Below are positions 1 through 52,512 of a stretch of 55,434 bases of DNA, one piece after another (positions within the stretch are counted from its first letter, which is position 1; each line of letters starts with the position of its first letter). The notes beneath the pieces are model-generated. The model did not search any database, was not told where the DNA came from, and saw only the letters and a program-made list of their open reading frames with translations. This DNA is from Thermoprotei archaeon (GTDB taxonomy: Archaea; Thermoproteota; Thermoprotei; Thermoproteales; B15-G16), in assembly GCA_003649205.1 (NCBI GenBank), contig QMRC01000013.1, positions 1 through 55,434 of the forward strand, in the 5' to 3' direction. A program made the position numbers and the translations under genes.

Positions 1-123
1 ACTCTCAGAGGATCATCCTCCTCACAGCATTACGCTCAGAGTCCCCCCTGAGAGTAGAACCCCCTCATCGCCTTACGCTCAGGGAAATCACCCCGTGAGG
101 ATAACCCTCACGAGGGTCATTCA
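1..123 (-). ncRNA. 5' part of a structured, K-turn-rich stable RNA (probable rRNA-operon leader), runs off the window edge
   Basis: Minus strand folds into hairpin ACCC(U)CGUGAGG/CCUCACGGGGU, K-turn hairpin CCCUGA-GC-GUAAG-GC-GAUGA-GGG, and stem ACUCUCAGGGG/CCUCUGAGAGU with two nested K-turns. CUGAGCGUAA occurs twice. BRE/TATA lies upstream. Confidence 0.6.
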
Positions 124-9470: not shown

Positions 9471-9519
9471 GTGATGAACTGGGTGGGTCCTGAAAGGTGA
9501 AGAGACAACACCTATCTGA
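9471..9519 (+). ncRNA. C/D-box sRNA 3
   Basis: C GUGAUGA, D' CUGA, C' GUGAAGA, D CUGA, 12-nt guides. Confidence 0.9.
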
Positions 9520-9549: not shown

Positions 9550-9597
9550 GTGATGAGTACTCGCGGGTCAGAATGGTGAAGAGAGCCACCGTGCTGA
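9550..9597 (+). ncRNA. C/D-box sRNA 4
   Basis: C GUGAUGA, D' CAGA, C' GUGAAGA, D CUGA, terminal UAG/CUA pairing. Confidence 0.87.
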
Positions 9598-35321: not shown

Positions 35322-35393
35322 GTGGTGATATTGATCCCCTAACCCTAAATTTACATTACCTCAATATCAGCATCAGGCTGACTCATCACCTCA

Positions 35394-35910
35394 TCAGGAC
35401 CCAAGGCACTCATCACAAATTAGAAATACTTCCGTACAGATTCTGAATTCACATAACTTAATCGGTTCCTTCATGTACTCAAGAGCCTCTGGTATCGATC
35501 TACTAGCTGTAATTTCTCTGAATACCAGCGCACTTGGTCTTAGGTATCTCTTCTTTGTACTGTAATCGACATAGCAGAGCCCAACCCCCATTCTAAATCC
35601 TTGAGTCCACTCGTAATTGTCAATCAATGACCAGTGTAAGTACCCCCTAACATCAACGCCTCCCTTCAACGCTTCAATTACCTGAGCTACGCACGATACT
35701 ATGTACCTTGGTCTCAAGATATCAAGCTTATTAGCTATACCATTTTCAGCAACTATCATGGGCACACCATATCTACGCTTAAGCTCTAGTAGTAGGTACT
35801 TAAGACCTTCAGGGTAGAATTCTCAACCAGAATCACTTGTTGATTTATCATCTGCAGAAAGTGAGTTTGAACTGTAGTGGAATTCGTAATTCTTAGCTGG
35901 TCTCCATGGT
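35394..35910 (-). pseudogene. C-terminal remnant of a GH1 beta-glycosidase with internal stop
   Basis: Hand translation ...SDSG*EFYPEGL...PMIVAENG...RGYLHWSLIDNYEW; TGA at 35823-35825 replaces the conserved Trp; N-terminal part absent. Confidence 0.88.
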
Positions 35911-49921: not shown

Positions 49922-50487
49922 GTTAGCTCCTCACTCTCATCCAGTAGCCAATCTATTTGCTGCCTATACGGACTTGGATCTATACCTCCTCTAACTATAC
50001 CGAGCACTATATCGCATATCGTATCGACATCAAGACCAGTAACATTAATCTCGAAAACCTTCTCCGAACTAAACCATGATCTAGCTTCGTTAGCGATGAC
50101 ACCAATGTACTCAGCAAGTACATTCTCAGCAATCTTCTCCTCCTTACTACTGTACCTAGCTCTAAGTCTCTTAACCAGTTCAAGAGGGTGTAGTCTCAGT
50201 ACAAAGATGTGCGTTACTAGGTCAGGGGGCATTACTGACGGTATGTGAGTATCAACAACTACCTTACTTAGCTCAGCTAGGTACTCACGTAGCTCACTCC
50301 TAGCTCTCTCAAGATCAATCACATAAGTATCTCTCCTAGCATCGTACTCTACACAGAGATTATGGCTGAGACAAAAACTACCGACATCAATGTACTCGGC
50401 ATTCAATACCTGAGATAGTTTCTTAGCTACAGTTGTCTTACCTGTACCTGGTGTACCTGTTATCAGTACTCTGAGGACTTGAGTCAT
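49843..50487 (-). CDS. Adenylate kinase 6 / Fap7-like NTPase
   Basis: ITGTPGTGKTT, VVDTH, LRAR..KIAENV.AE. Confidence 0.9.
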   Translation of the reverse strand: MTQVLRVLITGTPGTGKTTVAKKLSQVLNAEYIDVGSFCLSHNLCVEYDARRDTYVIDLERARSELREYLAELSKVVVDTHIPSVMPPDLVTHIFVLRLHPLELVKRLRARYSSKEEKIAENVLAEYIGVIANEARSWFSSEKVFEINVTGLDVDTICDIVLGIVRGGIDPSPYRQQIDWLLDESEELTQLIMECERILGRSSSNTLSEEVSPQ

Positions 50488-51791
50488 GGGTATACTCTAC
50501 GGATATCTCTTGGGAACGGTATGGCATCTCTAATGTGGTCAAGTCCACAGATCCACATAACCAATCTATCTACTCCGAGACCAAATCCTGAGTGGGGAAC
50601 TGAACCATATCGTCTCAGGTCGATGTACCACTGATAATCATCTGGATTCAATCCAAATCTCTTGATCTTCTCTATGAGTTCCCGCGCGTCATCTATCCTC
50701 TGACCACCACCAATTATCTCACCATACCCTTCAGGAGCTAACATGTCCTCTGACAGAGTGATTTCCGGTCTCTCAGGATCATTCTTATGGTAAAACGCTT
50801 TACAAGTCTCTGGATAACCAATAACGAATATCGGTGTCTCGAAGTCCTTTGTCAACTCCCTCTCTTCATCAGCTCCCAAATCATCACCCCACTTAATGTT
50901 GAACCCCTTCCTCTGAAGTCTCTCAATAACCTCATCGTACGATAGTCTTGGGAAAGGTGGCTTCACCCTCTCAAGGTGTTCAATTCTCCTACCCAGTATC
51001 GATAACTCCTCGAGGTTCTTCTCGAGAACCCTCCTAACGATGTGGTAAATTAGCTCCTCCTCCACTCTCATAATATCATCGAGCGTAGCCCAAGCAACCT
51101 CGGCTTCAGCATGCCAGAACTCAGTTAAGTGTCTCCTAGTTCTCGACTTCTCAGCTCTAAATGATGGAGCTACCGTGTACACTCTCTCCAAGCTATAGAT
51201 CAAGGCCTCTAAGTAGAACTGAGCACTTTGTGTAAGGTACACATTCTCTCTATCGAAGTACTTAACAGGAAACAACGTAGCACCACCCTCAACAGCAGCA
51301 GTTACGAAGATAGGACAGTGAACCTCATAGAAACCTCTAGATCTGAAGAACTCGTGAATTGCCTCAAACACAGTACTCCTAACCTTAAGTATTGAAGTCA
51401 TCTTTCTACTCCTAATCCATAAGTGACGTAGGTCAAGTAGTATCTCCGAATCAGCCCTCGCAGCTGACTCAGTTATGGGAAAGGCTTCAGCTATGTGAAC
51501 AGGCTCGAGCTTAGTAACTCGAACCTCGTAACCACCTGGTGCTCTAGGATCCTTAGCAACAACCCCCCAAACCTTCACCGAAGACTCAATTGTCAACTTC
51601 CTAGATAACTCGAAGTGAGGAGAATCCCTCTTAACAACACACTGAATAATACCTGTAGAATCACGTAGCAAGATAAAGGTTGAGTCCTTTAAAGTCCTCA
51701 ATCTATAGACCCAACCTCTCAACGCTACTTCCCTACCCACATACTCATCAGATTGAACATCCCTGACATGTAGGAAGGCACCCATGTACAT
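50484..51791 (-). CDS. asnS: Asparaginyl-tRNA synthetase
   Basis: RHLWIRS, VEGGATLF, YLTQSAQFY, FRAEKSRTRRHLTEF, YGSVPHSGFGLG. Confidence 0.94.
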   Translation of the reverse strand: MYMGAFLHVRDVQSDEYVGREVALRGWVYRLRTLKDSTFILLRDSTGIIQCVVKRDSPHFELSRKLTIESSVKVWGVVAKDPRAPGGYEVRVTKLEPVHIAEAFPITESAARADSEILLDLRHLWIRSRKMTSILKVRSTVFEAIHEFFRSRGFYEVHCPIFVTAAVEGGATLFPVKYFDRENVYLTQSAQFYLEALIYSLERVYTVAPSFRAEKSRTRRHLTEFWHAEAEVAWATLDDIMRVEEELIYHIVRRVLEKNLEELSILGRRIEHLERVKPPFPRLSYDEVIERLQRKGFNIKWGDDLGADEERELTKDFETPIFVIGYPETCKAFYHKNDPERPEITLSEDMLAPEGYGEIIGGGQRIDDARELIEKIKRFGLNPDDYQWYIDLRRYGSVPHSGFGLGVDRLVMWICGLDHIRDAIPFPRDIRRVYP

Positions 51792-51852
51792 GTCCTCAAA
51801 GGAGTTGTACAGAACGGGTTTTTATGCCTAAAGCAAAGGGGAAACCTGTAGA

Positions 51853-51886
51853 TAGGGAAGAAGAGGAAAGGTGGGGAAGGAGATTG
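51853..51886 (-). terminator. Pyrimidine-rich terminator-like tract after the structured RNA
   Basis: Minus strand CAATCTCCTTCCCCACCTTTCCTCTTCTTCCCT; similar tracts follow the tRNAs. Confidence 0.5.
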
Positions 51887-52155
51887 AAGAGCTAGGCGTT
51901 AGGGTTTGCCTTGTACAAGTACTCAGTCATCGGCTCATCTTTTTAGCCCGCTCTTAGGTTGGGTTTCATTCATCATTAGACGGGAGTCCTGAGACCCATG
52001 TTAGTTGGTACGACTGCTTACTTTGCAATAAGTATAGGATTAAACGAGTTTTGAACACAGTCTTATCGTGTTGGAAGACATTTGGTCTTGATGGGGGAGT
52101 GGGGATAGGCGGGTTCACTCAAACCCGAAACGGGTCTGTCACCCGCCTGATACCC
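51887..52155 (-). ncRNA. Unidentified ~270-nt structured ncRNA with K-turn motifs
   Basis: TTATAT TATA at 52180-52185; 5' K-turn hairpin, several short hairpins, second K-turn/K-loop hairpin, multibranch 3' domain closed by AAGAGC/GCUCUU; no ORF. Confidence 0.72.
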
Positions 52156-52209
52156 TAGTGTGATCGAGGTAGCTAAGGGATATAAGCGTAGTGTCTAGAA
52201 CTTGAAGGT

Positions 52210-52512
52210 CTAGGTAATGTACCTACGTTCGGAAGGTGATATCTTCTCAGCATATATCGAATGCACAACAAGATCTCCACCACACCTACTGCACTTACCA
52301 ATTACCATACCAACGTAAACTCCCTTCTCTACTCCTCTAACCTCCCTATAACCGCACTTAAGACAGGTAACCTCCATCCTCAGAGCTGACAATCTATTCA
52401 TCCTCTTCAAAACTCTACGAGGACTAAAGACTGTGTAGTAGAGAAGGAGTAGAAGAAGGACAAGAAAGAGAACTAGGATACCTAAGCTCTCAAACTGCAT
52501 TATGAAGTTCAT
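52210..52512 (-). CDS. Membrane-anchored zinc-ribbon protein
   Basis: N-terminal TM helix, CLKCG...CSRCGG; coupled to the DUF1512 gene. Confidence 0.8.
   Translation of the reverse strand: MNFIMQFESLGILVLFLVLLLLLLYYTVFSPRRVLKRMNRLSALRMEVTCLKCGYREVRGVEKGVYVGMVIGKCSRCGGDLVVHSIYAEKISPSERRYIT

Follow-up and report, generated by a model that had tools for sequence, protein, structure and literature searches.

On the minus strand of the window (the whole stretch of DNA analysed, 55,434 nt), the segment from 52155 to about 52086-52074 probably encodes a single-hairpin atypical H/ACA, or 'H/ACA-like', guide sRNA for the 790 loop of 16S rRNA, and is followed by a weakly constrained spacer. The original prediction had read this region as one multi-domain RNA of about 270 nt that belonged to a new class. 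The motifs that it listed are all present in the sequence at their positions on the minus strand; structure, conservation and guide features, however, were found in the first ~67-82 nt only.

The source genome is a metagenome-assembled genome (MAG) of an uncultured member of the Thermoproteales (2.07 Mb, 31 contigs, 93.8% complete), and its family contains one further species only, here called G001. The locus is a minus-strand spacer of 418 nt (51792-52209), located between a 100-aa zinc-ribbon-like ORF and asnS, whose closest relatives are also found in uncultured Thermoproteales. The N-terminus of the 100-aa ORF is hydrophobic, and two CxxC pairs are present in it; the ORF shares 4 nt with the DUF1512 gene at the stop codon of the latter, and has a single, sub-threshold Pfam match (zf-DNL). 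A 50-aa ORF with a GTG start, at 51966-52118, was without Pfam match. The features of the locus are collected in Table 1.

Table 1. Minus-strand features of the locus and its two neighbouring genes (window positions)
Feature	Position	Strand	Basis or remark
100-aa zinc-ribbon-like ORF	52210-52512	-	5' neighbour of the spacer; preceded by the DUF1512 gene
TATA-like box CTTATATC	52179..52186	-	sequence; centred ~27 nt 5' of G52155; TTATAT at 52185-52180
Predicted 5' end and 5' guide arm GGGUAUC (7 nt)	52149..52155	-	pairs with 16S GAUACCC; -9.5 kcal/mol
K-turn hairpin GGCGGGU-GA-CAGACCCG / CGGGUUUG-AGU-GA-ACCCGCC	52147-52108; extended to 52107..52148 by the A52148-U52107 pair	-	sequence, fold
GA stem	A52148-U52141 with A52114-U52107 (8 bp), plus tandem G.A/A.G, 52140-52139 with 52116-52115	-	10 pairs in total
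K-turn bulge AGU (3 nt, 3' strand)	52119-52117	-	sequence
Apical stem, loop UUU	52138-52131 / 52127-52120	-	sequence, fold
3' guide arm AUCCCC (6 nt)	52101..52106	-	pairs with 16S GGGGAU; -8.8 kcal/mol
UCA, degenerate 'NCA' box	52089..52091	-	15 nt past U52107, the closing pair of the GA stem
Small hairpin AAGAC-CAAAU-GUCUU	52075..52089	-	fold; directly past the box; last piece kept in a related strain
Poorly constrained spacer with small hairpins, 'K-loop' hairpin (52000-51960) and C/D-like stretch (~51985-51925)	51896..52074	-	
Pyrimidine-rich tract	51850..51895	-	sequence; T6 run at the matching place in G001
asnS promoter (TATA around 51833-51818); short leader, GAGG preceding the ATG at 51791	51792..51845	-	separate unit
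asnS	50484-51791	-	3' neighbour of the spacer; identity by Pfam

Structure of the module

The hairpin shows the complete K-turn consensus, namely a C stem, the 3-nt bulge AGU, tandem G.A/A.G pairs and an NC stem, and stems of 8 bp flank the kink. The canonical K-turn of the L7Ae type that had been proposed is therefore supported at the level of sequence. It is also rare: when both strands of the 2.07-Mb genome were searched for K-turns whose outer and inner stems each have at least 8 bp, this hairpin was the single match, and none was found in any of 10 shuffled genomes. With looser stems (at least 7 and at least 6 bp), 10 K-turns were counted in the real genome versus 1 to 5 in the shuffles. 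The 82-nt module 52155-52074 folds with a z score of -4.46, equalled by 0 of 200 shuffles.

The geometry of the module was compared with that of H/ACA RNPs. According to PMC4652768, productive or crystallised RNPs have a GA stem of 10 pairs and the H/ACA-like RNAs of Pyrobaculum range from 8 to 13, with an ANA or degenerate NCA box 14 to 16 nt 3' of the stem that is absent in some members. The 10 pairs found here lie within the 8-13 range of atypical guides, and the UCA, which counts as a degenerate NCA box, lies at 15 nt, within the range of 14 to 16. Neither ACA nor ANA is present as a box in the module. Judging from the fold and from duplex energy, mutual pairing of the two guide arms is possible; in the minimum free energy fold it is limited to GGG/CCC (plus U-A and A-U), and is not a lower stem of 5 to 9 bp. 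Since both the ACA/ANA box and a real lower stem are missing, the module is not a canonical H/ACA RNA. The earlier statement that the RNA lacks H/ACA hallmarks has to be revised, as the module fits the atypical H/ACA guides of Pyrobaculum and Sulfolobus islandicus.

The TATA box proposed at 52180-85 and the start GGGUAUC at ~52155 were both recovered (52185-52180 and 52155-52149, respectively). Together with the features of the module, this TATA box argues for the independent small-RNA gene with a promoter of its own that had been suggested. Near the TATA box, at 52165-52177 on the minus strand, lies a 12-mer, CTTAGCTACCTC, which with its near variants has about 200 copies genome-wide. It was considered as a regulatory signal and set aside: its contexts suggest that the copies are mostly in coding regions, as the reverse complement of GAG-GTA-GCT-AAG (Glu-Val-Ala-Lys codons), and it looks like a codon-usage word. 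At the other end, no clear terminator was found after the UCA box, so that the primary transcript may be longer; the small hairpin that directly follows the box may be a 3' trailer.

The comparison with Rfam that the original prediction had suggested gave no family at gathering score for 51750-52300 (E values up to 10 allowed, best E = 2.1), and in the whole window only 3 tRNAs were found at the gathering threshold. An identity as RNase P RNA or SRP RNA, already excluded in the original prediction, was discarded here too: the window has no match to either Rfam model, and both RNAs are encoded on other contigs, RNase P RNA (type A) on contig C3 (112 bits, covariance model) and SRP RNA on contig C5 (139 bits, covariance model). 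A search with the RNaseP-T model gave no match. Contig C3 (291,428 nt) has a peculiarity of its own, as every feature on it is doubled in mirror positions: RNase P RNA is present twice, at 108724-109040 (+) and 182389-182705 (-), and C/D sRNAs are also paired. This contig looks like a palindromic assembly artefact and not a true duplication.

Predicted target in 16S rRNA

No rRNA gene, that of 16S included, is assembled in the MAG, and for this reason the target sequence was drawn from three genomes of other families in the order (G002, G003 and G004). The scan looked for sites of the form X-U-N-Y in the 16S and 23S rRNAs of four genomes of the order, where X pairs with the arm on the 3' side of the stem and Y with that on the 5' side. 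The best bipartite site, GGGGAU-UA-GAUACCC, is identical in the 16S rRNA of 3 of 3 relatives (position 750 in G004, 755 in G002 and 1463 in G003), and is matched by 6 plus 7 Watson-Crick pairs. The complementarity between linkers and rRNA that had been suggested as a check was thus found, and the C/A-rich stretches beside the hairpin, described earlier as unpaired linkers, are better read as two guide arms for 16S rRNA. Two controls were run against the 16S and 23S rRNAs of G004, and scored on contiguous pairing with at least 4 bp in both arms. Of 2000 shuffled arm pairs one equalled the score, as did one of 2000 pseudo-guides taken at random from the genome. The energies of the arm/16S duplexes are given in Table 1.

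By its sequence, the target corresponds to the '790 loop' of 16S rRNA, which belongs to helix 24. GAUUAGAUACCC begins at 785 in an rrs copy of E. coli (1537 nt), and the predicted residue is presumably U789 in standard numbering. The predicted pseudouridine would be the second U of GAUUAGAUACC in this loop. We take yeast Psi999, in the same loop, to align with the first U of the UU pair, the only one of the two that is present in yeast. Because the residue predicted here is the second U, it may adjoin the Sulfolobus site and not coincide with it.

Cbf5 is encoded in the same genome, at C14:29013-30062 (NF003280, 477 bits versus a cut-off of 242). We infer that the candidate guide is transcribed, bound by proteins and used to modify a uridine, in the following manner. 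The TATA box ~27 nt 5' of the first G would drive the sRNA gene; L7Ae would sit on the K-turn, and the GA stem of 10 pairs and the 3' tail would be the assembly site of Cbf5-Nop10-Gar1. The arms GGGUAUC (5') and AUCCCC (3') would then open the helix-24 hairpin of 16S rRNA and pair on either side of an unpaired U-A, so that the second U would be placed in the active site of Cbf5 and converted to pseudouridine. The ~200 nt between the sRNA and the asnS promoter would be a spacer under weak constraint, perhaps included in the transcript as a trailer that is then removed by trimming.

Conservation and the downstream region

For a comparison between strains, contigs from four DNA runs were aligned to 51600-52450 at 80% likeness or more. 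The contig of a related strain (record 5, run X2) aligned from 52362 down to 52074 with 14 differences (~95% identity), and dropped below 80% immediately past 52074. Two minus-strand changes fall inside the sRNA, A52137G and A52148G, each of which converts an A-U pair of a stem to G.U. In a more distant contig, represented by records 6 and 10 (runs X2 and X3), likeness to the window is confined to 52102-52155, which spans the hairpin with its two guide arms. Homology begins exactly at 52155, both flanks are unrelated, and the three indels are all located in the apical stem-loop. The 5' flank of this contig carries a TATA-like TAAATTTAA (about -30 to -22, with ~26 nt between it and the first G) and one additional G that precedes the arm and would lengthen the arm pairing to the fourth C of the target. 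On the 3' side the sequence is AUCCC-U, which still pairs with GGGGAU via a wobble. This pattern of conservation indicates that the unit that moves and persists is the guide, of ~55-70 nt, and not the 270-nt region. The strain data, which consist of contigs only from few samples, give positions for all but five of the substitutions and do not amount to a covariation test, are supportive of the guide reading.

The same data bear on a role of the K-turn in cis, as an L7Ae element regulating an mRNA, either in the 3' UTR of the DUF1512/zinc-ribbon operon or in a long asnS leader. L7Ae binds K-turns of mRNAs in archaea, and the hairpin and the 100-aa ORF share a strand, the hairpin lying 55 to 100 nt past the stop codon. 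However, asnS has its own conserved promoter some 250 nt further on, and in the distant relative the hairpin and both arms occur between unrelated flanks with a TATA-like box of their own. A bipartite complementarity to 16S rRNA, a GA stem of 10 pairs and a box at 15 nt would also be unexpected in such an element, and we regard it as extremely unlikely.

Searches for the module elsewhere returned no full-length orthologue. With the 418-nt spacer as BLAST query, among 41 genomes a match was found in G001 only; it was partial, and the contig of G001 starts inside the spacer. Blastn and nhmmer against 80 asnS loci detected G001 and no others, and the 80 metagenome asnS loci included one close relative only, cut inside asnS. 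The hairpin gave only short BLAST matches in 62 genomes of the order; a recurrent 16-mer among them, ACCCGCCTATCCCCAC, was rejected, as its context, inspected by eye, appears to place it in orthologous coding regions. Pattern scans for the two arms plus K-turn in 185,579 species genomes gave chance matches only (at least 119 and 36 stretches), and among the matches listed, the stem had at most 6 of 8 pairs, those with 6 being all bacterial. A regular expression applied to the collected loci recovered the window itself and no other.

The region downstream of the guide is central to the proposal of a single stable RNA of ~270-300 nt (52155 to ~51860), with L7Ae at both the K-turn and the K-loop, that would be a new scaffold or multi-guide. 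Such an RNA would agree with the single TATA box upstream and the lack of a T-run before the pyrimidine tract, and with the second G.A-containing hairpin and the C-box-like and D-box-like motifs at 52000-51925. The small hairpins (AACACG/UGUGUU and UACUU/AAGUA), the K-loop hairpin, the AAGAGC/GCUCUU closure and the pyrimidine tract proposed as its parts do exist, but they do not exceed chance: the 194 nt past the first module (52088-51895) fold like shuffled sequence (z of -0.06, with 94 of 200 shuffles doing equally well). For the full 311 nt, z was -1.37 on the minus strand and -1.38 on the plus strand. Given that both stretches fold close to their shuffles, the 'multi-domain' part represents no more than chance.

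Comparison with G001 adds to this. Over ~51976-51880, identity was roughly 65-70% with indels, as estimated from the alignment, while in the same alignment the asnS promoter differs at one aligned position; the TATA that had been proposed for asnS itself is thus confirmed, around 51833-51818. The AAGAGC strand is AAUAGU in G001 and GCUCUU is unchanged; with one strand alone altered, this closure is without compensation. The hairpins GGCU/AGCC and GUAC/GUAC are not kept, and no compensatory change was seen downstream. A few short patches are conserved (AAAGAUGA, AUGACU and GCUCUU), a point in favour of the large RNA. Against it stand, in addition, the related strain, with less than 80% likeness right past 52074 though ~95% upstream, and the other relative, which shares 52102-52155 only. 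Moreover, none of the four downstream hairpins, the 'K-loop' included, has a bipartite rRNA site of at least 4 plus 3 pairs in five registers. We consider the large RNA highly improbable. Much the same holds for a longer composite transcript of ~290 nt, in which an H/ACA-like 5' domain would be joined to the G.A/K-loop hairpin and to a C/D-like K-turn module. Such a transcript would parallel, in an archaeon, the composite H/ACA-C/D scaRNAs of eukaryotes, or else be a precursor loaded with L7Ae that gives rise to two RNPs by processing; the lack of a terminator before the pyrimidine tract and the few downstream patches kept in G001 would suit it, and we give it very little likelihood. The pyrimidine tract is a possible termination zone for transcripts started upstream.

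Two separate genes could also be envisaged, the H/ACA-like guide being followed by a degenerate or atypical box C/D sRNA at ~51985-51925 (AUGAUGA ... CUAA ... AGAUGA ... CUGA). This stretch has weak matches to sR18, sR2 and SNORD51 (E of 2.8 to 5.1), its C box and D box are 43 nt apart, and a TATA-like TTTAATCC lies upstream at ~52045; G001 has CUGA at the D' position, and AGAUGA and AUGACU are kept. The genome itself provided a reference, with 124 matches to the canonical C/D pattern; once 8 mirror copies on contig C3 are discounted, the distinct loci number 116. These matches are very regular (~48-52 nt, a loop of 3 to 9 nt, two spacers of 10 to 13 nt). The stretch is not among the 124, and its loop of 13 to 14 nt and second spacer of 8 nt fall outside this layout. 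Its first spacer differs from that of G001 at about half of its positions. The spacers match rRNA at 8 to 9 of 12 positions, which is the background level, in a test that is weak since, with rRNAs this distant, a score of 9 was common for real guides too. A separate C/D gene is therefore judged unlikely, and the stretch is possibly a degenerate C/D relic. Three of the canonical pattern matches lie in the window, at 9471-9519 (+), 9550-9597 (+) and 35367-35416 (-), none of them reported by Rfam at the gathering threshold.

The best explanation for the ~200-nt stretch remains that a short guide is followed by spacer, and that there are no further domains of a large RNA in it.

Relation to known guide RNAs

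Atypical guides, without lower stem and ACA box, have been reported only from Pyrobaculum and, with functional proof, from S. islandicus; according to a 2024 study (PMC11077068), how widely they occur is a matter for further work. In S. islandicus, six H/ACA RNAs were identified by Cbf5 RIP-seq, four of which are atypical (PMC11077068). One of the atypical guides, sR563, guides 16S-U747, equated by its authors with yeast Psi999, and U1162; a potential lower stem must unwind for substrate binding, and deletion of the gene slows growth (PMC11077068). Atypical guides were active with proteins of P. furiosus in the same study. As far as these descriptions go, sR563 is the nearest counterpart of our candidate. 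Both have a single K-turn hairpin with no functional lower stem and no ACA box, and both would be bipartite guides for small-subunit rRNA whose arms can pair together and must open for the substrate. For sR563 a second target, 16S-U1162, is known, and this RNA is experimentally proven, whereas the candidate is predicted. The site predicted here may also be one nucleotide off that of sR563, and the likeness is one of described architecture.

The H/ACA-like sRNAs sR203-sR210 of Pyrobaculum (Bernick et al. 2012, as described in PMC4652768) are closer in taxonomy, belonging to the same order, Thermoproteales. They too have a K-turn hairpin with free 5' and 3' single strands serving as a pseudo-pocket, a GA stem of 8 to 13 pairs, and, with canonical spacing, a box that is either ANA or a degenerate NCA. 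The candidate, in contrast, comes from a different, uncultured family and has no sequence similarity detected by BLAST in the 41 and 62 genomes of the order. With canonical archaeal H/ACA RNAs (Pyrococcus Pab/Pf, Pyrobaculum sR201/202) it shares the K-turn in the upper stem, the GA stem of 10 pairs, the distance of 15 nt from stem to 3' box, and a bipartite guide leaving two target nucleotides unpaired; unlike them, it lacks a lower stem of 5 to 9 bp (at most GGG/CCC) and has UCA instead of ACA/ANA. The archaeal box C/D sRNAs, of which this genome has ~116, share the L7Ae-binding K-turn chemistry, but the candidate hairpin is without C/D box arrangement.

Four other K-turn hairpins of the same build were seen in the genome. 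Three have ACA or AUA exactly 15 nt past the stem (C2:208465-208503 (+), C2:263287-263325 (-) and C12:25136-25176 (-)), and a fourth, at C7:38832-38878 (+), has a 7-bp lower stem directly followed by ACA. These four are likely to be the rest of the organism's H/ACA guide set, although their target predictions are weaker. As hairpins of the same build exist, this organism appears to have a small H/ACA set that includes our locus. A strong K-turn-like hairpin lies at 1-120 (-) of the window, with a 12-bp outer stem (...GGGGG-GA-...-GAU-GA-UCCUC...), amid repeated CUGAGCGUAAKGC units. It is also found at the ends of contigs C9 and C16, and its presence at three contig ends indicates a multi-copy element that breaks the assembly.

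The locus would thus add a well-defined candidate atypical guide for an uncultured family of the Thermoproteales, and no new RNA class. It is useful for annotation, since Rfam misses the guide. The pseudouridine predicted from it would fall in the 790 loop, a universally conserved part of 16S rRNA, and apparently coincides with or adjoins the site known to be modified in Sulfolobus and yeast. The locus may also help to trace how the architecture of guide RNAs degenerates while their targets persist.
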